Shown: piece after piece, positions 11,057 to 22,777 of the stretch
Position numbering within the stretch: the stretch's first letter is position 1
How the letters are laid out: each line of letters begins with the position of its first letter
Origin: an uncultured bacterium
Lineage (GTDB): Bacteria; Cyanobacteriota; Cyanobacteriia; CAZCXK01
Direction: 5' to 3'
Assembly: GCA_964502605.1 (NCBI GenBank)
Contig: CAZCXK010000003.1
Coordinates: 19,476 to 83,475 of the forward strand
DNA length: 64,000 bases
Position numbers and translations under genes: made by a program
The notes under the pieces: model-generated
The model's database searches: none
Told to the model about the DNA's origin: nothing
What the model saw: the letters and a program-made list of their open reading frames with translations, nothing else

Positions 11057-12340
11057 TTAGAGCATCTCTCGACCGAGATAGGGCTGCAAAGCGTCTGGAA
11101 TGTGCACGGTGCCATCAGCTTGCTGGTAGTTCTCTAGAATGGCCGACATGGTGCGGCCAACGGCTAACCCTGACCCATTGAGCGTGTGAACAAATTGTGT
11201 TCCTCTTTTGCCCGCTGCCTTAAAACGAATGTTGCCTCGACGCGCCTGAAAATCTTGACAGTTTGAGCAACTCGAAATTTCTCGATAGGTTCCAGATGAA
11301 GGCAGCCACACTTCTAAGTCGTAGGTTTTAGTGGCGGCAAAGCCTAAGTCGCCCGTGCACAGCTCAATCACCCGATAGGGTAACTTCAGCGCTTGTAAAA
11401 TGCCTTCAGCATCTTGAGTCAGGCGTTCGTGCTCATCGGCTGACGTATCGGGATGCACGAATTTATACATCTCGACTTTATTAAACTGGTGCAGCCGAAT
11501 CAGCCCCCGTGTGTCGCGGCCATAGCTCCCAGCTTCGCGGCGAAAACAGGGTGTAAATGCACAGTAATGAAGGGGCAAATCATCAGCAGTGAGAATTTCA
11601 TCACGATGGAAGCTCGTCAGTGGCACCTCCGCCGTTGGTGTTAGCCATAAATCATCGCGATCGCACTTAAAGCTTTCATCGGCAAACTTTGGCAGTTGCC
11701 CCGAAGCGGTTAATGACTCAGTGCTGACCAAAAATGGCGGCATGATCTCGGTATATCCAGCGGCCACATGGCGATCGAGCATAAACTGGATTAGCGCCCG
11801 CTCGAGCGCAGCCCCTGCACCCACCAGTGAGACAAAACGGCTTTGGGCAATCCGCGTTGAGCGTTCAAAATTGAGAATACCCAGTTTTTCTCCCAGATCC
11901 CAGTGGGGCAGCAGTGCCGCCGAATCGGCTGGCAGATACTCATCTCCCCAGCGCCGCACCTCAATATTCTCGGTTTCATCGCGGCCAGTGGGCGTCGTCT
12001 GGCCAGGAAGATTGGGCAATGCTAACAGTTTGGCTTCAAGCACCGCCTTCAGGTCTCGTTCTTGAGGTTCTAGCTGACTCAGTTGCGCTTTGATCTGGTT
12101 GCCTTCGGTTTTCAGCGCGGCGATTTCATCACTCTGAGGGCTAACACCTGACTTGATCTTCTGGCCTACGGCTTTGCCAATTTCATTGCTGCGAGCCTGA
12201 AGTTGCGATCGCATTCCTTCTAATTCTCGCTGGCGTTGGTCAAGCTCCAGGATGGGCTGCAACTCGTAGCCGGGGCCCCGCAGGTTGAGGCGGGTTTGCA
12301 TCTCGTCTGGCTGGTCTCGGATCTGCTTGATATCTAGCAC
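11057..12340 (-). CDS. serS: Seryl-tRNA synthetase
   Basis: 427 aa. The N-terminal coiled-coil arm ([22 protein letters not shown]...) and class-II core motifs ([30 protein letters not shown]) are typical SerRS. Confidence 0.9.
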
Positions 12341-12623: not shown

Positions 12624-13943
12624 CTACCCGCCCGTCAGCAAACGGGTTTGCCTCAACAGAAATTGTAAAAACGTTTCTTCTCGCGAGATGATGTTTGCCT
12701 CCGCCTGCATACCAGCCTGCAACTGACATGGCCGCCTGTTGCGGGGTGTCGTTTGGATCAGGGTAATAGCGTCAGGTTGCAGCGTCACTTCAAAGTAGCT
12801 GGCGAGACTCTCCGGGCGATCGCCCCCCACCTCTGATCGACTCACATCAGGGGCGATCGCGGAGACCGTTGCAGCTAACGTGCCATAGTCAGGAAACGGG
12901 CAGGCTTCGATGCGGAGCTGCGACAATTGTCCCACCTGCACCCGATCAATGTCTTGGGTGTCAACTCGGGCCTTAATCACTAAATTTTGGGTGTTGGGGG
13001 CAATTTGGGCCACCACGTCCCCTGCCTGCACCACTTGATTGGGATTGCGCAAATTGAGTTGAAACACCGTGCCCTCAGTCGCAGCTCGAATGATAGTCTT
13101 CACCAAATCGGCGTCTACTTGCTGCAAGTCTTGCTGGGCCTGCAGCAACTGGGCCTGCAGCTCAGCTTGATTTTGCAACAGCAGTTCTTGTTCGCGCTGC
13201 AAGGTCGCTAGGGTGGCCCGACCTCGCGACTCTTCATGCAAAATTTGCTGTTGGGCGATCGCCACTCCCGCATCAATTGGGTTTAACGCCGCCCGTGCCC
13301 GCCGCACCTGAGCCATTGCCGTTTGGACTGCTGCCCGCTTTTCGTCGAGTTGCAGTTGAGAAACCGCCCCTGAATCAACTAACTGCTGATATCGCTGCAC
13401 TTCAACAGTGGCCAGATCCAATGCAGCCTGTGCTTCTGCGAGGTCGGCCTCAGTGGTCGCCTGCTGTTCACTCAACTCGCGCTGATTGCGATCGAGTTCT
13501 GACTGAGCCGTTGCGACAGTTTGGGCGATCGCCCTGGATTCTGACGCCATCTGCGCCCGCATCAGCTGGATTTGAGTTTCCACCTGGGCTCGTTGAATCT
13601 GTAGTTGCTGAACACCGCCCTGCAACTGCTGCTGTTGTGAGTTGAGTTGGGTGGGGTCGAGGCGGGCGATCACATCTCCCTGCTGCACAGTTTGATTAGG
13701 CTGTATGTCAATACTGGCAACAGTTCCCGTTAGTGCAGACTGCACCACGCGCAGCTCTCCGGCTGGGCGAACAGTCGCAGGGGCTCTGACAGCAACGTTG
13801 TAGGTCACGATCGAGGCTAGCCCCACAGCCAACCCCACGGCACCGATGAGCAATCCCCCTCCGACAATTATCCAGCGGCTAACCGGGGGAAGAAACTCGT
13901 CAACTTGAAGCGATCGCAAGGGTGAAGGTTTGGGATTGAACAT
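12624..13943 (-). CDS. HlyD-family membrane-fusion/periplasmic adaptor protein of a type I (bacteriocin-type) export system
   Basis: ATG at 13943 (MFNPKPSPLRSL...) precedes one N-terminal transmembrane helix (WIIVGGGLLIGAVGLAVGLASIV). A very long Q/A-rich coiled-coil follows, then a C-terminal beta domain. It lies directly downstream of the C39-ABC transporter. The six-frame ORF extends to 14111 and would overlap the transporter gene. Confidence 0.8.
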   Translation of the reverse strand: MFNPKPSPLRSLQVDEFLPPVSRWIIVGGGLLIGAVGLAVGLASIVTYNVAVRAPATVRPAGELRVVQSALTGTVASIDIQPNQTVQQGDVIARLDPTQLNSQQQQLQGGVQQLQIQRAQVETQIQLMRAQMASESRAIAQTVATAQSELDRNQRELSEQQATTEADLAEAQAALDLATVEVQRYQQLVDSGAVSQLQLDEKRAAVQTAMAQVRRARAALNPIDAGVAIAQQQILHEESRGRATLATLQREQELLLQNQAELQAQLLQAQQDLQQVDADLVKTIIRAATEGTVFQLNLRNPNQVVQAGDVVAQIAPNTQNLVIKARVDTQDIDRVQVGQLSQLRIEACPFPDYGTLAATVSAIAPDVSRSEVGGDRPESLASYFEVTLQPDAITLIQTTPRNRRPCQLQAGMQAEANIISREETFLQFLLRQTRLLTGG

Positions 13944-14011
13944 GGGATGAAGCCAGGTAAAGTGGCGCGAAACAGGTGAGAAAGAAAGGGAAAGGGCGAG
14001 AGGGAGACGTT

Positions 14012-16153
14012 TTATACCATCAGAAACTCTAAGTGATCGCCCATGTGTTCCCGTAGTTGATCGGGTGTGCCTTGCCGTTGCAGTTTGCCATTGTCTAGAA
14101 AGACAATCCAATCTGCTAGCTTAATCACGTTGGGACGATGGCTGATCAAAATAGTGGTTTTGCCCTGGCGATATGCCAACACACTTTTTAGGACATGTGC
14201 TTCACTGACGGGGTCTAATCCAGCGGTCGATTCGTCTAGCAGCAGCACAGGTGGATGGTTGATCATGGCACGGGCGATCGCCAACCGCTGCTTTTGACCT
14301 CCTGATAGATTCGAGCCAAACTCTCCCAAAATAGTTTGATACTTTTCGGGCAACCGCCCGATAAACTCATCGGCTCCCGTCATTTCACAGGCTGCAACTA
14401 GATCCTCAAAGGTGAGATGCGGATTGCCCAACCGAAAGTTTTCAATGATAGATCGGCTCCAGAAGTGGGCGTCTTGTGGCACCAAAACAACCTGTTGTCG
14501 AATGCACTCTAGAGCCAGATCATCTAAGTTGTAGTGCCCCATACGAATGTTGCCCGACTGCAACGCATAGAGTCCGGCAATGACCTTGGCCAGAGTGCTT
14601 TTACCACAGCCCGACTTGCCAATCAATGCCGTCACCCGCCCCGCCGGAATGGTCAGCGAGAAGTCGTTCAGCAAATCTACCCGCCCTGGATAATGAAAGC
14701 GCAGATCAGTACAAACAATATTTGCCACCTGAATTTCTACCCAGGGCTTTTGGGAGTCATGCTGGGTTTCAGGGGTGGCTTTGATCACCTCATCCAGCCG
14801 GGTGCTGGCCGTTTGCACGCGAATCCAATCATCGACCACACCCACAAGTTCATCAATCAGCGCGGTAATATTGCGGTTGAGTGTCGTGAAGGCCAGCAAC
14901 TGCCCGATGCTGAGTTCTTGATTAATCACCAATAAGCCACCCAGCCCTAAAATCGCGGCACTGCCAATATCTGCAACGATTTCACTAAACGTGCTATTAA
15001 AAATGCTGATGCGCGTCGTGCTCAGCATCAAGTTGGCCAGCCGCCCAAAGCGGCTTTGCATCTCATCCCAAAACTGATGCTCGGCGGCAGTTGTTTTCAG
15101 CGTCAGTGCGCCCTTGAAGGTTTCTACTAAGACGCCCTGTGTCTCGGTTTCCAACACCATCTCACTGCGGGTTTTCTGTCGCAAGATGGGCTGAAACACG
15201 ATAGTTGAAAGAGTCATTAAGACGGCCACAACCAGCGCCACTGCGGTCAGTTTCCAACTATAAAACAGCATCAGCCCCAGTGAAACTAGAGCAATCAACA
15301 CCGTGCTGGGCAGATTAATGATCACGCCTGAAACTAGCCGATTAATTTCTTCAATATCGCGCAGGCGGCTGACCACTTCTCCACTGCGGCGTGTTTCATA
15401 ATAAGTGAGGGGCAGGCGCAAAATCTGCTGACCAAACTCCAACACAAAACCCAGTTCCAGTCGTTGAGCAAAGTGAGCAATCAGATTGTCGGCCACCAAG
15501 CCTAAGCCACTTCTCACCAGATACATCAGCACAACCGCCAGCACAATGCCCAGCAGCAGGCGCGTGTCGCCGCGAATCAACACATCATCCGTCAAGATTT
15601 GGATAAAGAAAGGGGACGCCAGTGACAGTAAGCCAATCAGCGTGACACATAGCAACGATTCTAGTAAGATGCTGCGATAAGGTAGCAGTCGCCAGAGAAA
15701 CTGCCCCACACCGGTTATCGGGTCATCAGACTGGTGATAAAAGCGGCTAGGGTCTGGCTCAACCAGCAAAATCACGCCATCATGCCAGTCTTCTCTCAGC
15801 TCGGCTTCAGAGAGATAGCGCACACCCACGGCAGGGTCGGCAATCACATAGGTTTTTCCCCGCTTGCCATATAAAATTACCCAATGTTTGCCCCGCCAGT
15901 GAATCACAGCAGGCAGCGCGATGTCATGGAGGCGATCGAGAATTTCAGGAGAGGCGATCGCCGATCGGGCAAAAAATCCTAAGGCTTCACTGCCGCGCCG
16001 CAAGCCCAGCAGTGTCGTACCCAACTGTCCTGTTCCCACGGCTTCACGGGCGCGGCTGAGGCTAAATGTGCGCCCATAGTGTTTGGCAATGGAGGCCAAG
16101 CACGCGGCTCCACAGTCTTCTTCGCTGTGCTGCAAAACCAAGGGATAACGCAT
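14012..16153 (-). CDS. Peptidase-C39-containing ABC transporter (PCAT; bacteriocin/RiPP processing and export ATPase-permease)
   Basis: N-terminal C39 domain with the catalytic Cys in EEDCGAACLASIAKHYG and His in GKHWVILYG. Six transmembrane helices follow. The C-terminal ABC ATPase has Walker A GKSGCGKST, signature LSGGQKQRLAIARA and Walker B LLLDE. Confidence 0.85.
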   Translation of the reverse strand: MRYPLVLQHSEEDCGAACLASIAKHYGRTFSLSRAREAVGTGQLGTTLLGLRRGSEALGFFARSAIASPEILDRLHDIALPAVIHWRGKHWVILYGKRGKTYVIADPAVGVRYLSEAELREDWHDGVILLVEPDPSRFYHQSDDPITGVGQFLWRLLPYRSILLESLLCVTLIGLLSLASPFFIQILTDDVLIRGDTRLLLGIVLAVVLMYLVRSGLGLVADNLIAHFAQRLELGFVLEFGQQILRLPLTYYETRRSGEVVSRLRDIEEINRLVSGVIINLPSTVLIALVSLGLMLFYSWKLTAVALVVAVLMTLSTIVFQPILRQKTRSEMVLETETQGVLVETFKGALTLKTTAAEHQFWDEMQSRFGRLANLMLSTTRISIFNSTFSEIVADIGSAAILGLGGLLVINQELSIGQLLAFTTLNRNITALIDELVGVVDDWIRVQTASTRLDEVIKATPETQHDSQKPWVEIQVANIVCTDLRFHYPGRVDLLNDFSLTIPAGRVTALIGKSGCGKSTLAKVIAGLYALQSGNIRMGHYNLDDLALECIRQQVVLVPQDAHFWSRSIIENFRLGNPHLTFEDLVAACEMTGADEFIGRLPEKYQTILGEFGSNLSGGQKQRLAIARAMINHPPVLLLDESTAGLDPVSEAHVLKSVLAYRQGKTTILISHRPNVIKLADWIVFLDNGKLQRQGTPDQLREHMGDHLEFLMV

Positions 16154-16173: not shown

Positions 16174-17250
16174 CTAGATGAATTCATTGAGAACCGAATA
16201 GCGATCGCCCGAATCTGGGTTGAGATAGGGCTGAGCGAGATCAATCTGATGGTGCTCAAACTGCTGCATGATGCAGTGTAGGCGATGGGCTGGTGTTTCA
16301 TCCCCTAGGGCTCTAGCAACTAAGAGCCCTTGAGCAACTAGCTGGCAGCGCTGTAAGCCAAAGTCAAGCGTGTCGTCATCGTCGGGGTCTTCTGCTAAGC
16401 CGATACCAGGTGCTAGCGGTTTCATAAACAGAGGAATAGCGGCATCAAGGTGCGATCGCCCCTGGTGATAAAACTGCTGCAATGGCACATAAATATCTGC
16501 ATAGCGATCGCGTTCGATCTGCAAAATAACTGCATCGTAGCGCCCATACTCTGCCGGATCATAAAGCGCTTTTAAGCTAAACGGCAGATCAGCGGCATTT
16601 AAGGCGGCGGGAATGTGCTGCATCAGGGCGATCGCCCCCACAGCACTTAGATTGAAGCAAATCTCAAGGCTGCTAGCCTCTTCGGGCACGAGTCCGGCAT
16701 TGCCCACGGCCACATAAAACCCCGCCTCTAGCCGGTTTTTTGGTAAGCGAATGGCCACCCGCTCACCCACATGGGCGGTCTGTTGAGCAGGATGGAGGTG
16801 GCGATCGCGCTCAATATGCACCGTCAGGTCTTCTTTTTGCACCGCCAAACTGCCGTCAGACTCTTGCCGCACAATGCTCCAGTCTGGATCAAAATATCCC
16901 TGCCCCGGATTGGCCTCATGCAATTGGGCATAAAAGTCGCGATTGACGCCTCGCAGCAGCTCATTCTTGAGCGGCGGCACTGGAGCAGCATCGGCCTCTA
17001 GCTCTAGCTCATGGCTGAAGTAAATGTCGTAAAGATAATCCCGTAGCTTTTGCTGCTGCAAGCGCTGCTGAAACGGAGTCGGCAGTTGCCGATAACAGGC
17101 AAGGACAGTCTCCGGCAGGTCTAAGGGCGGATAGGAAGCCTGCCAGATCTGAAAATCGGCGGCAATTTGAAGATGGGTGGCAATCTCAGTCAACGTTGCC
17201 ATCGTGGGAGTGGGAGTTAACACAGCAGGGGGCGAGGAGAAAGGCATCAT
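16174..17250 (-). CDS. Hypothetical 358-aa protein co-operonic with the kinase-like gene; candidate peptide-modification partner (possibly HopA1-like lyase-type), function unverified
   Basis: No motif I can name with certainty. It is tightly packed between the kinase-like gene (57-nt gap) and the PCAT gene (20-nt gap). It is soluble and acidic, with a DPDDDD patch. Confidence 0.35.
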   Translation of the reverse strand: MMPFSSPPAVLTPTPTMATLTEIATHLQIAADFQIWQASYPPLDLPETVLACYRQLPTPFQQRLQQQKLRDYLYDIYFSHELELEADAAPVPPLKNELLRGVNRDFYAQLHEANPGQGYFDPDWSIVRQESDGSLAVQKEDLTVHIERDRHLHPAQQTAHVGERVAIRLPKNRLEAGFYVAVGNAGLVPEEASSLEICFNLSAVGAIALMQHIPAALNAADLPFSLKALYDPAEYGRYDAVILQIERDRYADIYVPLQQFYHQGRSHLDAAIPLFMKPLAPGIGLAEDPDDDDTLDFGLQRCQLVAQGLLVARALGDETPAHRLHCIMQQFEHHQIDLAQPYLNPDSGDRYSVLNEFI

Positions 17251-17307: not shown

Positions 17308-18492
17308 TCAAACTGGGAGCAACGGAGAAACCAGTTCAGACGCAGAGAGGCCCAACACTGCTGGAATTGATGGCTCTGGTGTAGACAACAAGGTTTTTGC
17401 AACTTGCAGCAAACAAATGCCTCGGTTGCCAAAAGGTTCTAGATAATAGAGCCGGGCTCGAATCGACTCTATCAATGCTAGCCCCGCAAACTGCATTATC
17501 CGCGTTAGCACATCGGGGCGGGCATTGACCAACGCCGGAAACTGCGTGAAATATGCGCGCAAAAATGCAATCATCGACGACTGGAGTGTTTCGAGTGGTG
17601 TGGTGGCAGACCGCAGAGACGTTTGCATATCGAGATCAGGGCTTACTACTAAACTCTTGAGCCAAATTTTGAGAAAATCTGCAATAATCATGCCGACATC
17701 ACTAGCCGGATCGCCCCAAATCCATTTTTCCCAGTCAATGAAGCGAATCGCAGGCTGGGGTACCCCAGCCTGTAAGTGAGACGACAGACCATCCCAATCG
17801 GTGTGCAACAGAATGTTGGTAAACTTCAAATCATTGTGGGTCAGACAGCAGGGAGTAAACGCTTTATTTAGAGCGGCGATCGCCCCTCCTAAGCTGTCAT
17901 AGCGCTGATACAGTTCATAAAATTTCAGCCCATCAGTAGCCACATTGCCAAAGATTTCAGGCGTAATTCTAGCCAGCCCATGACTCAAATCGGGAGGCTG
18001 ATCGAGTGGGTCATCGTCAAGCTTGCTCAGCGTTGTCTGAAACGTGCCGTGGTGAAACGTGGCCCTATGAACGGTTGCTAAGGCAGTACCTAAGGCCTTA
18101 GCAACCGCATCTGGAAATATCTGGTTGTGTTCATAAAACTGGTCTAGGTCACTATAGTTGTTGAGATAGTGAAACACCAAAATGGCATTTTCCGCATCCG
18201 CATCAATTGCAACTGAAAGCAGGGATTGCAGCTTGGCCAAATCAACATGCGATCGCATCCCTCGATAAAGCTGCCATTCATGCTCCAAATCTCGACGGGT
18301 GTTGCCCGCTTGATCATGGGGCTCTTGCTTGACTAGAAGAGAGCGATCGCCCGCTAAATGGACGAGTAAATTGAAGTTCTTAAAGATTTTAGGCTCAATG
18401 GTCGCACCCCGAAGGTCTGCGTTCGTGCAAAGATTTCGAGTGATTAAATACTCTAAAACAGTATCAGTTCCAAGAATTAAAGGCATTTTCAC
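17308..18492 (-). CDS. Protein-kinase-fold phosphotransferase (APH / CotS / choline-kinase-like family)
   Basis: An N-terminal lobe with a conserved Lys context (LLVKQE) is followed by the catalytic-loop motif HNDLKFTNILLH (compare HGDLhpgNil) and the downstream IDWEKW (compare IDWE), as in aminoglycoside-phosphotransferase-type kinases. Confidence 0.65.
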   Translation of the reverse strand: MKMPLILGTDTVLEYLITRNLCTNADLRGATIEPKIFKNFNLLVHLAGDRSLLVKQEPHDQAGNTRRDLEHEWQLYRGMRSHVDLAKLQSLLSVAIDADAENAILVFHYLNNYSDLDQFYEHNQIFPDAVAKALGTALATVHRATFHHGTFQTTLSKLDDDPLDQPPDLSHGLARITPEIFGNVATDGLKFYELYQRYDSLGGAIAALNKAFTPCCLTHNDLKFTNILLHTDWDGLSSHLQAGVPQPAIRFIDWEKWIWGDPASDVGMIIADFLKIWLKSLVVSPDLDMQTSLRSATTPLETLQSSMIAFLRAYFTQFPALVNARPDVLTRIMQFAGLALIESIRARLYYLEPFGNRGICLLQVAKTLLSTPEPSIPAVLGLSASELVSPLLPV

Positions 18493-18657
18493 TCCAGTCG
18501 CCGTAACACCCAGATATCATTTAATACTAGATTGGTTCCGTTTTTTTACATAAAAAAGCAAGGTCTTGATCATAGCTTTTTACCGCGTGATCAGCCCTGC
18601 TTTATGATTAAACTAGCACTTAACACGCCCTCAATTGATCATCGAGAAATGCCTGAC

Positions 18658-18954
18658 TTAGGTGCTGCTATTGCTGCGGCTGCGACCCGCTCGTAGCCGA
18701 CGCAGCCTGCGACGACGACGAAGTCTCCTGCGGCGGCGGCGAAGTCTCTTGCGACGGCGATCGCTTCTGCTAATAGATTTTTTACCTCCACCAATCATAG
18801 ACTCATCTTCTTCAGATAAGTCTTTCAAAAGGCTATCAGCGCCTAACAATAACGCTGAGCCAATTGCATGCTGATCAAGATCTACAGTTTCAATCATGGC
18901 TATATCTCCACAATTACTAACAGCTTCGACCGATTTAGAAGCTGATTTATTCAT
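18658..18954 (-). CDS. Candidate precursor peptide: 57-aa leader ending in a double-glycine motif (LKDLSEEDESMIGGG) followed by a 41-aa hyper-basic Arg-rich core
   Basis: The ATG at 18954 begins the operon. The leader matches the LSxxE(L)xxIxGG consensus cleaved by C39 peptidases. The core (KKSISRSDRRRKRLRRRRRRLRRRRRLRRLRAGRSRSNSST) is about 60% Arg. The plus-strand ORF 18662..18874 is its antisense shadow. Confidence 0.5.
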   Translation of the reverse strand: MNKSASKSVEAVSNCGDIAMIETVDLDQHAIGSALLLGADSLLKDLSEEDESMIGGGKKSISRSDRRRKRLRRRRRRLRRRRRLRRLRAGRSRSNSST

Positions 18955-19042
18955 TGATTTTTTCTTCTTCTTTAAGAATAAACCTTAAACTTAGAGGCAT
19001 GTCTCTTCATGAGAAACTTCTCACAGTTTCCTAATCGTGATC

Positions 19043-19495
19043 TCATCTAAAAATGAGGCGTTGGTAAGAAGCAAGATGAATTAGGCAGGAACAGGGACAT
19101 CCCTGAACTTGAGGTAATGGATCAACAATCGGATAGAATGCTACAGTCCAGATCCAGATCTTATTTTGCTTTTTGCCTACAAAAGTCTCCAGTTCATCCA
19201 GTTCCCCCACTTGGGGGATTTCCTTTGGGTCATAGCTGTCCGGTAAGCGTTCCCCAGCCTGTGCAATCCAGTTCAAAATCGTGGTGTGGGCAATATTTGT
19301 CACACGGCTGATGCTGCGTACGCCCATACCATTGACATACATTCTCAAGCACAACTGTTTCACGTCATCGCTATAGCCTTGGCAGTCATAATGATCGAGA
19401 AACTGCCGTCCGCAGTTCACGCAAATGTAGTTCTGTTTCTGCTTTCGATGCCCATTTTTGCGAATATGTTCTCCACCACAATCAGGACATTTCAT
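19043..19495 (-). mobile_element. Truncated IS1-family transposase fragment (InsA-like zinc-finger/HTH part plus the first residues of the InsB-like catalytic part)
   Basis: CPDCGGEHIRKNG...YICVNCGRQF zinc finger, an HTH (GMGVRSISRVTNIAHTTILNWI) and then GELDELETFVGKKQNKIWIWTAV, which resembles the InsB N-terminus. The ORF ends after 150 aa, so the DDE domain is absent and the element is an inactive remnant. Confidence 0.6.
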
Positions 19496-20442: not shown

Positions 20443-22284
20443 TCAAAAGCTAAACGTGGCTCTAAAGCTGCCGATGACACTATCGCTATTGCTGGCATCT
20501 TGATTGGGAGCGCTGATCCAGATGATGCCAGGAGTCACCGAAAGATAGTCAGATAGCCGCAGTTTGTAGAAGGCTTCTAAATGGAGTGAGGTGTCATTTT
20601 CGAGACTGAGATCCGCTCTATTGGTGCTTCCTAGATAGGGTTCTACCCCAAGCAAGAGACCGCCAAAACTGCCCGGTAGCAGGAGATCTGGAAAGCCAAA
20701 CCCAATGCCGTAATACCAGATTTCACCTGATCCGCCAGTTCCAAACGCAAGATCGGTATAGCCACCAAAGGTGTGCAGCATAAAGCGAGAGTTGACGCGA
20801 TATGCCGCCTGGATGCCGTAGGAGTTGGTAATCGCGGATGAGCCTAATTCAATGTGAGCTGCGTTAGCTGGACTCGTGCCCACGTAAAATTCACTATCGT
20901 CTCCCAAGTCGAAAATGCTATTGGTATCCGTGTGGTAACCGTGGACGTAGGTGACCCCAATCTGCAAGCGATCGCCCGGTGTAAACGAGATCTGCCCCAG
21001 GGCCGCATAGTCGCCATTGAGTAGCCCACTATTGGATGTGGGGCTAGCGGCTTCATCAGCAAGATAGCCAACCGTAAGCGACAGCATTTGTTGATCGTCG
21101 AGAAACACAGTCAGTCCGGCTCCGGTGCCGCCACCAATGCGATAAATCGGGCTTTGCTGACTAAATGCCGAGAGAGAGCCGTTGCCCCCGTCAAAATCTT
21201 CAAATAGCGGGCTAAACGTGCTAGGCACATAGTCACTGTGGATGCCTCCAGTGGCGCTGACATAGGCTGCAACGCGATCGCCAATGGGTAGGCTATAGGC
21301 CAGCCAATCGAGCCCGACTTCATTGTCGGTGTTGCCGCCGATCCGTGAAATCAGCGTGCCCTCAGCCGTGCCAGCTTCGACAGCGTCAAAGCCGCTAGAG
21401 GTGCGAAAGGGAGACGCATTCCCCGCTGCCAAGCGCAAATTGAGTCGATCTGAGCCGCTAAAACTAGTAACTAAATCAAGCCGCAGGCGATCGCGGAACA
21501 CCGTGCGGTTGGCCTCTCCATTGCTGAGCTGTCCTGCCAAGGAAAAAATTGCTTCTCCATGCAGCTTGGTGGTCGTAGAAAACTGATTGGTTTCAAGCTG
21601 GGTTGTTCGAGATTCGAGCGATCGCACTCGACCTCTGAGTAGTGCTAAGTCGGCAGAAAACTCCGTTTGGAGACGCAGCAGTGTGGCCAAGTCATCGCGC
21701 GCCACGGCATGATCGCCTAACCTCTGGTCAATGATTGCCTGAATGCGATCGAGCGCCGTCAGCAGCGCCGCCGCAAACTCAGAGCGACTGAGGACGCGAT
21801 CGCCACGAAAGGTGCCATCGGAGTAGCCTCCAATCACCCCATAGCGTTCGACTAGCGATCGCAACGCCTGATAGGCCCAATCGGTCGGCTGCACATCTGA
21901 TAGCTGATCGACCGAAGTGACTTGCCCCATTGCCTCTGGTGCGTTTCTAATCGTCGGTACGACGTGGGGCACATCAGCACTTGATGTAGTATTCGCGCCA
22001 GTATTCGAGCTAGCATAAGCGTCCCCCACGGGTGCAGCCGATCGCTGCAACAGCAACGGTTCTAGCGATGCAGCAGGCTGAGACTCGGGTGTAGTCGGAG
22101 TCACCAAAACAGAGATTGGATGCTGAACCAGCGCACCGGGCTGAAACGTCTCGACAGCAGACTCAGCCGTGCCCCGCGCATCAACCTGAGGAGTCGCTTG
22201 AAGAGCCTTATCAGGAAGAGCGATCGCCCCACTGCCCCATAAGGGCGCTGAGGCCAATAGCGTGATCGGCAGAGATTTAAGCAT
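20443..22284 (-). CDS. Outer-membrane porin with an N-terminal S-layer-homology (SLH) domain and a C-terminal OprB-like beta-barrel
   Basis: ATG at 22284 gives a signal peptide MLKSLPITLLASAPLWGSGAIA. An SLH motif (WAYQALRSLVERYGVIGGYSDGTFRGDRVLSRSEFAAALLTAL) and a coiled-coil linker follow. The C-terminal half is Gly/Ser/Thr/Tyr-rich with alternating hydrophobics and ends in ATFSF. This is the typical cyanobacterial SLH-OprB porin architecture. Confidence 0.8.
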   Translation of the reverse strand: MLKSLPITLLASAPLWGSGAIALPDKALQATPQVDARGTAESAVETFQPGALVQHPISVLVTPTTPESQPAASLEPLLLQRSAAPVGDAYASSNTGANTTSSADVPHVVPTIRNAPEAMGQVTSVDQLSDVQPTDWAYQALRSLVERYGVIGGYSDGTFRGDRVLSRSEFAAALLTALDRIQAIIDQRLGDHAVARDDLATLLRLQTEFSADLALLRGRVRSLESRTTQLETNQFSTTTKLHGEAIFSLAGQLSNGEANRTVFRDRLRLDLVTSFSGSDRLNLRLAAGNASPFRTSSGFDAVEAGTAEGTLISRIGGNTDNEVGLDWLAYSLPIGDRVAAYVSATGGIHSDYVPSTFSPLFEDFDGGNGSLSAFSQQSPIYRIGGGTGAGLTVFLDDQQMLSLTVGYLADEAASPTSNSGLLNGDYAALGQISFTPGDRLQIGVTYVHGYHTDTNSIFDLGDDSEFYVGTSPANAAHIELGSSAITNSYGIQAAYRVNSRFMLHTFGGYTDLAFGTGGSGEIWYYGIGFGFPDLLLPGSFGGLLLGVEPYLGSTNRADLSLENDTSLHLEAFYKLRLSDYLSVTPGIIWISAPNQDASNSDSVIGSFRATFSF

Positions 22285-22327
22285 TAGGGTTGCACTCGTC
22301 ACACCAAACCCATTTAAGCAGAAACTT

Positions 22328-22777
22328 TTAAGCAGAAATTGACAGAGGAACCTCACCACTGACTTGCAGCGATCGCCACGCCCGCCTGGAGCACTGGTCT
22401 GCCGTCAGCCGACAAATTGGCAGCCAACGAATGCCGTTAGGCCCAACTTCAGGATCATCACTGGTCAGGGCTTGCGGCTTGGGAGACACCGAGCACCGAT
22501 ACACAATGTTAATCGTATGCACCATGCAGCCAGCCTTCTCCGGAAAGAAGCTATCAAGCACCGTCAGCACGCCATCTACCTGAAAGTCGGTAAGGCCAGT
22601 CTCTTCTTGCACTTCGCGCCGCAGCCCGTCTAGTAGCGGTTCATGAGGCTCCAAGCCACCGCCGGGTAAATCCCAACAGTTGGGCTCGGGGAGGGTGGTT
22701 TGGTGCAGCAGTAAGACTTCACCCCCATCAACGAACAAGCCTACCACACTGACCAGGATGCGAGTTACAGGAGTCAT
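22328..22777 (-). CDS. NUDIX hydrolase
   Basis: Nudix box GGGLEPHEPLLDGLRREVQEETGL (Gx5Ex7REUxEExGU). Confidence 0.75.
   Translation of the reverse strand: MTPVTRILVSVVGLFVDGGEVLLLHQTTLPEPNCWDLPGGGLEPHEPLLDGLRREVQEETGLTDFQVDGVLTVLDSFFPEKAGCMVHTINIVYRCSVSPKPQALTSDDPEVGPNGIRWLPICRLTADQCSRRAWRSLQVSGEVPLSISA

Follow-up and report, generated by a model that had tools for sequence, protein, structure and literature searches.

A candidate arginine-rich precursor peptide encoded beside a LanK-like kinase and a LanY-like lyase homologue in an uncultured cyanobacterium

Gene content of the locus

The 64,000-nucleotide (nt) stretch of cyanobacterial DNA considered here (contig CAZCXK010000003.1 of assembly GCA_964502605.1, forward-strand positions 19,476 to 83,475; the whole stretch is called the window) contains on its minus strand a short open reading frame (ORF) that encodes a double-glycine leader followed by an arginine-rich tail. 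This ORF is probably, at a rough probability of 0.7, the precursor gene of a ribosomally made, enzyme-modified and exported peptide that is read in the arginine-rich frame. It had been singled out earlier from the letters alone as a 98-amino-acid (aa) ORF with an ATG start at 18658..18954, and it is present as claimed. The same-strand cluster to which it belongs consists only of the precursor, a kinase, a lyase, a peptidase-C39 ATP-binding cassette (ABC) exporter and an HlyD adaptor (Table 1); genes for a LanX cyclase, a LanD decarboxylase or a reductase were not found in the cluster. The order of precursor, kinase and lyase (fused or split), C39-ABC exporter and HlyD recurs in several collected loci (prefixed L; L001, L005, L007, L008, L009 and L098) and on every sufficiently long contig, and in L015 and L016 the gene set is unchanged but the exporter pair stands upstream. 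Several relatives encode kinase and lyase as a single fusion protein of 790-875 aa. Oculatella sp. LEGE 06141 and filamentous cyanobacterium CCP1 are among the strains with such a locus.

Translation most likely starts at the second ATG, which encodes Met20 (M20) of the long ORF (18897), and not at the first, as had originally been assumed. Homologues (n = 8) begin about 37-39 residues before the Gly-Gly, with a ribosome-binding motif 7-10 nt 5' of the start, and the sequence around the M20 start is near-identical between the window and its closest relative, L004. The window's third Gly falls in the column that holds the second Gly of the other family members. Cleavage after GGG then places Leu at -12, Ser at -11, Asp at -8, Ile at -4 and Gly-Gly at -2/-1 in the family alignment; because this column gives the expected Ile, Ser and Leu positions, cleavage after GGG, as first proposed, is the consistent reading.

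The translated core matches the peptide originally quoted exactly, and its composition needs some correction. It contains 21 Arg, 3 Lys, 7 Ser, 1 Thr, 4 Leu and no Cys. The original prediction had counted 24 Arg and 2 Lys and had described the core as about 60% arginine; Arg makes up 51%, and a value of 59% is reached only by Arg and Lys together. Its tally of eight Ser/Thr and no Cys agrees with the recount, and the Arg codons are mixed, as had been stated (CGC 9, CGT 5, AGA 3, AGG 2, CGG 1 and CGA 1). The G+C content is 60% in the core DNA, 39% in the leader DNA and 51% in the whole window. Arginine density, scanned in six frames over the 64-kb window, reaches 18 Arg per 25 residues in the precursor ORF and 14 in its own antisense, with all others at 10 or fewer.

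Table 1. Features at and around the precursor gene (window coordinates; E, expectation value).
Feature	Position	Strand	Basis
Precursor gene, likeliest form, 79 aa, M20 to TAA stop	18658..18897	-	ORF; homologue N-termini align with M20; leader profile match E 4e-20
In-frame 5' extension, 19 codons from first ATG, probably untranslated	18898..18954	-	No GGAG-type ribosome-binding motif before ATG 18954; homologues begin at M20 position
Shine-Dalgarno-like GGAG, 8 nt 5' of ATG 18897	18906..18909	-	Same place in 7/8 homologues; weaker AGTAGA in one (L012)
Leader peptide, 38 aa, MIETVDLDQHAIGSALLLGADSLLKDLSEEDESMIGGG, net charge about -8	18784..18897	-	Alignment: invariant G13, L16, L27, S28, D31, E32, GG
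Core peptide, 41 aa, no Cys, net charge about +23, monoisotopic 5313.24 Da unmodified	18661..18783	-	Composition; family architecture
Terminator-like hairpin then U run, between precursor and kinase genes	~18552..18603	-	Fold of 18530..18660: -32 kcal/mol, z = -2.07 vs shuffles
LanK-like Ser/Thr kinase, aminoglycoside-phosphotransferase (APH) fold	17308..18492	-	NCBIfam LxmK E 3.8e-21; weak Pfam APH and Kdo matches
LanY-like phospho-Ser/Thr lyase homologue, HopA1 family, remodelled active site (E175, E196, K227, R237, Q244)	16174..17250	-	Pfam PF17914 (HopA1) E 2.4e-42; PDB 9dk1_B E 7.8e-10; column analysis
Peptidase-C39 ABC exporter, predicted Gly-Gly cleavage and export	14012..16153	-	Pfam Peptidase_C39 (E 2e-32), ABC_membrane, ABC_tran
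HlyD-type membrane-fusion adaptor	12624..14111	-	Pfam HlyD_3; NCBIfam type_I_hlyD E 8.8e-47, under curated cut-off
+1-frame ORF, Ala/Val-rich, 51 aa, by-product of CGN-rich DNA, not a gene	18639..18794	-	Early stops in L005, L009, L012; poor paralogue conservation
Antisense Arg/Leu-rich ORF, 70 aa, mirror-image by-product, not a gene	18662..18874	+	Interrupted in L007, L012; no leader, no own gene context

The coding frame

Homologues of the precursor were found by a word-indexed protein search, which returned six short proteins with a leader ending in …DLSEEDESxIxGG and an Arg-rich tail, and at an orthologous locus in Oculatella sp. LEGE 06141 (the seventh). For the frame test, the DNA of eight homologues was translated in all frames. 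The frame fixed by the leader is the Arg-rich one in 8/8, the +2 frame contains stops in 8/8, the +1 frame meets a stop within a few codons in three, and the antisense frames are broken in two (Table 1). In pairwise DNA alignments all indels between homologues are multiples of three (3, 6, 9 or 15 nt), and third codon positions hold most of the differences (for example 39 vs 16 and 16 between L005 and L024). Two paralogous precursors that lie side by side in L007 are identical at 21 of 31 core positions in the Arg frame vs 10/30 and 13/30 in the shifted frames, and of the 20 core codons that differ between them, half do so without a change of residue, mostly as CGN to CGN. Homologue comparison settles the frame, with the Arg-rich frame as the one that these sequence patterns mark as under selection. 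The alignment of orthologues that had been suggested as a check on the original prediction favours the Arg-rich frame after the double-glycine leader, and not the +1 or antisense frames.

The contrary view is that the Arg-rich reading is an artefact, and that the product comes from the Ala-rich +1, Ser/Pro-rich +2 or antisense frame through an indel or a programmed frameshift after GGG. The +1 and antisense ORFs exist as originally described, and in the window the +1 frame runs without a stop for 51 codons. Scoring of codon use in the three frames, another of the checks suggested, came out divided. On the window sequence alone the Arg frame has total log2 odds of -15.5 vs -0.1 and +5.3, so that the generic score points to the other frames; the low total reflects the penalty on an unusual amino-acid composition. 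Synonymous-choice odds for the same single sequence place the Arg frame above +1 and level with +2. Against the artefact stand the stops and interruptions in the other frames of the homologues, the conservation of the paralogous cores and the three-nt indel pattern. An assembly made from another, independent read set contains the identical ORF, and this speaks against a sequencing indel. Agreement of sequences from independent projects (NCBI, JGI, ENA and Logan) adds to the case, and a sequencing indel was rejected. An artefactual Arg reading is extremely improbable on this evidence.

Kinase and lyase

The kinase is by profile comparison a homologue of LxmK and not an equivalog, with a score of 75.5 bits against the NCBIfam LxmK model vs a cut-off of 315 bits. 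A phmmer search of the kinase against PDB sequences gave no match. Residues K55, E72, H219, D253 and E255 are invariant across 79 kinases aligned with that of the window. Among the matches of the lyase (Table 1), PDB 9DK1 chain B is LxmY, the lyase component of the lexapeptide dehydratase LxmKY (PMC12141560). In both CaoK/CaoY and LxmK/LxmY, Ser/Thr are dehydrated in two steps, phosphorylation and then elimination (PMC9486802, PMC12141560), and LxmK is insoluble without LxmY (PMC12141560). Mutagenesis of CaoY has shown that R187A and K219A abolish elimination and that R229Q weakens it, while Y236 is conserved; with R187A, elimination is almost abolished and the product is mostly phosphorylated and undehydrated (PMC9486802).

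Residue roles in the window lyase were mapped through LxmY onto the CaoY mutagenesis data, with the aid of a review. By this sequence alignment, which has moderate local confidence and is good to within one column either way, K227 and R237 of the window lyase correspond to K219 and R229 of CaoY and are retained. The R187 column holds Glu196, the Y236 column holds Gln244, and a further Glu has been gained at 175 in place of Gln. No Arg or Lys lies within two positions of the R187 column in any lyase of the group with Arg-rich cores (the Arg group).

The leader family and its cores

An exhaustive profile search over 1.84 billion representatives returned 95 cluster representatives at E<=1e-3, 22 of which also passed the stricter limit of E<=1e-10; they are almost solely short precursors of bacterial type, nearly all of 43-105 residues. 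In the loci collected around precursors and LanY genes, the leader profile matched 143 precursor ORFs. Their leaders share the motif x-L-x-P-x-G-x-x-L-F-x-x-x-E-S-F-L-x-[DE]-L-[ST]…GG and lie directly 5' of a LanK/LanY pair, a pattern that the window fits. Comparison of the precursor with NCBIfam and Pfam models, with E values up to 0.1 admitted and the NHLP and Nif11 leader families included, gave no match. The occurrence of 143 such precursors in LanK/LanY loci argues that the leader family is the general substrate family of cyanobacterial LanK/LanY pairs, with Arg-rich cores as one predicted subclass.

Core types in the family range from Arg-rich cores with Ser/Thr-rich ends through Arg-Ser, Arg-Thr and Lys-Ser repeats to poly-Lys, poly-Asp and hydrophobic cores. 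Pooling of the distinct Arg-rich cores gave 46 sequences with a median length of 31 aa and a median Arg content of 50%; their overall composition is 48.5% Arg, 16.5% Ser and 4.5% Thr. Cys occurs in three of them and is absent from the remaining 43. Most of their Ser/Thr residues (232/317) adjoin Arg or Lys, and Ser/Thr density peaks in the first ten and last eight residues of the core.

Several other cores are borne on the same leader. Repeat cores such as LLSITITITITITVTLAKAA, LLGITLTITITITITITL and TSITVTVSATWSVTWSWSWTW occur in L029 (1826..3718), L042, L044 and L020, where up to six precursors stand in a row next to canonical (Arg-type) lyases. A poly-Asp core, TFYKDDDDKDDDDKYDDDKYDDDKYDDKNT, is encoded by P0035 (L014 743..949), and a PFPTR-repeat core, RPFPTRPFPTRPFPTKPFPTKPFPT, by L002 9818..10042. 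In L056 (343..528) the core is acidic and Thr/Pro-rich, TAETPGPDETPPPTPDETPGTT, and the Arg187 column of its partner lyase is Trp. Contigs of the poly-Asp core (P0035) and of a Lys-Ser/Cys core (P0051) are too short to show neighbours.

Lyase active site and core charge

A metagenome scan with the lyase profile yielded 319 relatives, from which 80 loci were kept, and the column analysis covered 90 loci. The column of CaoY Arg187 is Arg in 73/73 lyases that are not paired with charged cores; precursors were detected for 58 of these, and none of the 58 loci has a basic core. In the 12 loci with basic cores the column is never Arg (Fisher p = 8e-11, uncorrected for phylogeny). It is likewise non-Arg in four loci with other charged low-complexity cores and in L037, where no precursor was found. 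For charged low-complexity cores as a whole, 16/16 paired lyases lack the Arg187 equivalent. The lyase subgroup of the window usually has Glu in this column. L019 has Asp there, yet its lyase is 75% identical to the Arg-type lyase of L023. Together with a rough neighbour-joining tree and nearest-neighbour identities, this distribution suggests that the Arg187 equivalent was lost several independent times.

Other changes accompany this one. Arg-group lyases have Glu for Gln at 175 and further acidic gains at 231, 292, 296 and 307. The kinases of the group are also more acidic, with a mean net charge of -17 vs -10.6 +/- 4.4, and keep all catalytic residues. Among 119 database homologues of the window lyase, E175/E196 occurs in 28 clusters, the window's own counted, and the canonical Gln/Arg/Lys/Arg/Tyr signature in 54 clusters; the pair in L003 (Calothrix sp. 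NIES-4105) is of this canonical type. As a blind test, two E/E lyases on long contigs were chosen by signature alone; both (2/2) have an Arg-rich precursor upstream, DRSNSRSDRRPRRRPRRRPRRNRSRSRT in L098 and RHGRGGGRTRTRTRG in L099 (Acaryochloris sp. RU_4_1). The ratio of lyase to kinase divergence is 1.14 in the Arg group vs 0.94 in canonical pairs, and by this measure the lyase domain of the Arg group remains constrained. The co-variation of core and lyase gives independent support for the Arg-rich peptides as real substrates.

Three sets of unusual lyases were noted in the same analysis. The fusions in L015 and L016 (830 and 826 aa) have Thr for the catalytic Lys, Ile or Ser for the Arg187 equivalent and Met for Tyr; they pair with Arg-Ser-Leu and Arg-Ser-Pro repeat cores, and two precursors and a two-component regulator are adjacent. 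In L018, L019, L049, L056, L061 and L074, which belong to Lys-Ser, Arg-Thr and acidic-repeat lineages, the column of CaoY R229 is Cys each time. This Cys appears at three places in the rough tree and may reflect convergence or a single, poorly resolved clade. Lyases of L075 and L097 have Arg in the Arg187 column and Gln for the catalytic Lys, and no precursor was detected in their fetched flanks.

Neighbouring genes and expression signals

A seryl-tRNA synthetase gene borders the cluster on one side; the other side has an insertion-sequence (IS) remnant, Uma2 and an OprB porin. The synthetase gene (11057..12340, minus strand) lies directly downstream and is probably an unrelated housekeeping gene. 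An OprB-type porin with an SLH domain is encoded a few kb 5' of the precursor both in the window (20443..22359, minus strand) and in the unrelated locus L005 (848..2425); its position may be a coincidence, or it may mark an outer-membrane partner. A 150-aa ORF at 19043..19495 (minus strand) has an N-terminal zinc-ribbon motif and the apparent start of a transposase domain at its end (…LDELETFVGKKQNKIWIWTV…). Its Pfam matches are weak and concern the zinc ribbon only, and it is probably a truncated IS1-type remnant, 88 nt 5' of the precursor and on the same strand.

The exporter translation contains the motif QHSEEDCGAAC and matches NCBIfam bacteriocin-export models below their curated cut-offs. 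The HlyD ORF as listed begins at a TTG, is 495 aa long and shares 100 nt with the end of the exporter gene; because of this overlap, translation probably begins further in, at an ATG near 13943 (MFNPKP…). The consensus terminator scan did not report the hairpin between precursor and kinase genes, because its stem is imperfect. A hairpin between precursor and enzyme genes is the usual arrangement for a high ratio of precursor to enzyme expression, and at this locus such a function is putative. A search of 18300..19200 against Rfam gave a single sub-threshold microRNA match, which is noise. Two-component sensor and regulator genes flank the Arg-core loci L007 (708..5722), L015 (11471..13664) and L099 (1..3280), an arrangement that hints at regulated production; the cluster of the window has no such gene beside it.

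Proposed pathway and alternatives

The pathway proposed for the window would begin with docking of the precursor, through its leader, on a kinase-lyase complex. The kinase would then phosphorylate the Ser/Thr clusters at both ends of the core, mostly beside Arg or Lys. Elimination of phosphate by the lyase, giving dehydroalanine and dehydrobutyrine, is slightly favoured as the next step, with Arg residues of the substrate, held in the new acidic pocket, taking the place of the missing enzyme Arg. Elimination is favoured because the lyase still has its base Lys and Arg237, and because the Glu pair shows conservation of its own. No lanthionine ring would form, because the core lacks Cys. The C39 domain of the ABC exporter would cleave after GGG, and the exporter and HlyD adaptor would secrete a 41-aa polycation of about 5.3 kDa with a charge of about +23 before modification. 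The product may be an antimicrobial polycation, or it may bind an anionic matrix, DNA or polyphosphate. The fullest version of this scheme remains tentative: secreted poly-arginine peptides with LanK-phosphorylated ends, and a LanY rebuilt as an acidic Arg-binding pocket, leading either to substrate-assisted elimination or to an exported phospho-Arg-rich peptide.

Besides the total codon odds, several observations weigh against a modified and exported peptide. The window lyase keeps two of the four residues of the canonical LanY set (CaoY R187, K219, R229 and Y236), a count that depends on the one-column tolerance of the mapping. Dehydration is uncertain because two of these residues are missing and CaoY R187A is nearly inactive. 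The catalytic Lys itself is lost in L015/L016, which are the strongest case for a lyase devoid of elimination activity. An IS remnant lies directly upstream of the precursor, a consensus promoter scan found no promoter-like site on the minus strand, and no immunity gene is evident.

The lyase replacements allow a different end point, in which the pathway stops at phosphorylation and the phosphates stay on. The lyase homologue would then be inactive and serve as a structural partner of the kinase or as a peptide-binding subunit, and the product would carry up to eight phospho-Ser/Thr. Glu196 and Gln244 in the window lyase, the phosphorylated product of CaoY R187A, the additional Thr for catalytic Lys in L015/L016 and the fully conserved catalytic residues of the kinase are all in keeping with this outcome, and the insolubility of LxmK without LxmY makes a purely structural role for the lyase plausible. 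However, Lys227 and Arg237 are kept in most Arg-group lyases and E175/E196 recurs across 28 clusters, so that the site looks like a changed one and not a decaying one, and, measured against the kinase, the lyase exceeds the evolutionary rate of canonical systems by only about 20%. Retention of phosphate is regarded as a serious possibility, though the less likely of the two.

Export of the peptide in unmodified form, as for class II bacteriocins or small matrix proteins that are secreted, with no action of the kinase and lyase on it, is improbable. A double-glycine leader and a C39-ABC/HlyD pair would suffice for processing and export, and double-glycine peptides that act in matrix or biofilm are known in cyanobacteria (PMC4997328). 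However, the precursor adjoins kinase-lyase genes in every locus examined, and the N-terminal half of its leader is common to the 143 precursors, all in LanK/LanY loci. Enzyme residues and enzyme charge track core charge, and the Ser/Thr clusters are conserved in Arg-rich cores.

More improbable still is that the cluster is a silent remnant in this genome, cut off from its promoter by the upstream IS fragment. The truncated IS1-like ORF on the same strand and the failure to find a sigma-70-like promoter on the minus strand fit such a history. However, a -35/-10 consensus scan often misses cyanobacterial promoters, none of the five genes is truncated or disrupted, the ribosome-binding site is still in place, and the kinase keeps the catalytic residues of its family. 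The preferred reading remains that of a precursor whose peptide is modified by the adjacent enzymes and exported.

Relation to known systems

The closest known systems are the class V dehydratases LxmK/LxmY (lexapeptide) and CaoK/CaoY (cacaoidin) of Streptomyces, which likewise place an APH kinase and a HopA1-like lyase beside a leader-bearing precursor. The candidate base Lys (CaoY K219) and Arg (R229) of these enzymes are kept in the window lyase. The window differs in its host, which is cyanobacterial and not actinobacterial, in its double-glycine leader and C39-ABC export, in a core without Cys, in a cluster without LanX, LanD or reductase, and in a lyase with Glu for the Arg187 equivalent and Gln for the conserved Tyr; some relatives have a fused kinase-lyase. 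Membership of the lanthipeptides was rejected, since the core has no Cys (as in 43/46 Arg-rich cores) and the cluster has no cyclase. The thioamitide enzymes TvaC/TvaD (ThoC/ThoD) are a kinase and a HopA1-like lyase that dehydrate Ser/Thr outside the classical lanthipeptides (PMC9486802). The window cluster differs from these in having no YcaO/TfuA thioamidation genes, and organisms, leader and export route differ as well.

Putative cyanobacterial LanA precursors of "Type-B", with conserved leaders and diverse cores, have been described beside LanK/LanY pairs and are uncharacterised (Liang et al. 2022, PMC9486802). They probably belong to one leader family with the 143 precursors of the present analysis. 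To be retained in the survey of Liang et al., an ORF had to have both Cys and Ser/Thr in its C-terminal part (PMC9486802); because of this Cys filter, 43 of the 46 Arg-rich cores would have been excluded. Its account of type-B precursors mentions neither Arg-rich cores nor changes in the lyase active site (PMC9486802).

With double-glycine peptides that are exported by C39-ABC transporters (class II bacteriocins), the window locus shares Leu -12, Ser -11, an acidic residue at -8, Ile -4 and Gly-Gly, and the adjacent exporter and HlyD. It differs by its kinase-lyase pair and by a leader outside the NHLP and Nif11 families. An analysis of cyanobacterial bacteriocin clusters mentions neither kinases nor arginine (Wang et al. 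2011, PMC3140520). EbfG/PteB of Synechococcus is a comparison system of double-glycine peptide and exporter (PMC4997328).

Protamines and the RS domains of SR proteins with their SRPK kinases offer a comparison of another kind, as they are built of Arg blocks and Arg-Ser repeats. The original prediction had likened the core to protamine and SR proteins. The likeness is one of composition: the window's core also has Arg blocks, Arg-Ser repeats occur in the family, and a dedicated Ser/Thr kinase is encoded alongside. The window peptide is bacterial, leader-borne and predicted to be exported, and what it shares with the eukaryotic proteins is composition and possibly a charge-switching logic, probably without homology.

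Implications

Dehydration by a kinase and a HopA1-type lyase is known from a few Streptomyces lanthipeptides and thioamitides, and a 2025 review gives actinobacteria as the sole source of class V lanthipeptides to date (PMC12328550). The cyanobacterial LanK/LanY branch is large, with 319 lyase relatives in one metagenome scan and 143 precursors in the loci examined. In the window, the machinery amounts to a class V dehydratase variant coupled to double-glycine export. Some cores of the branch, with about 50% Arg, with Arg-Ser, Arg-Thr or Lys-Ser repeats and without Cys, are unlike natural products in the literature searched. Searches for arginine-rich or poly-arginine ribosomal peptides in cyanobacteria, or for remodelling of the lyase, returned nothing relevant in a literature coverage that is incomplete. 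The lyase active site has changed along with core charge, apparently several separate times. E175/E196 in place of Gln/Arg provides a handle for genome mining, which worked in two of two blind attempts. If phosphate is retained, the peptide would be a prokaryotic, extracellular analogue of the charge switch of protamines and RS domains, and a ribosomal natural product defined by stable O-phosphorylation. Products of this kind, if made, would be polycations of cell-penetrating type that occur naturally and carry enzymatic modifications, with possible practical uses.

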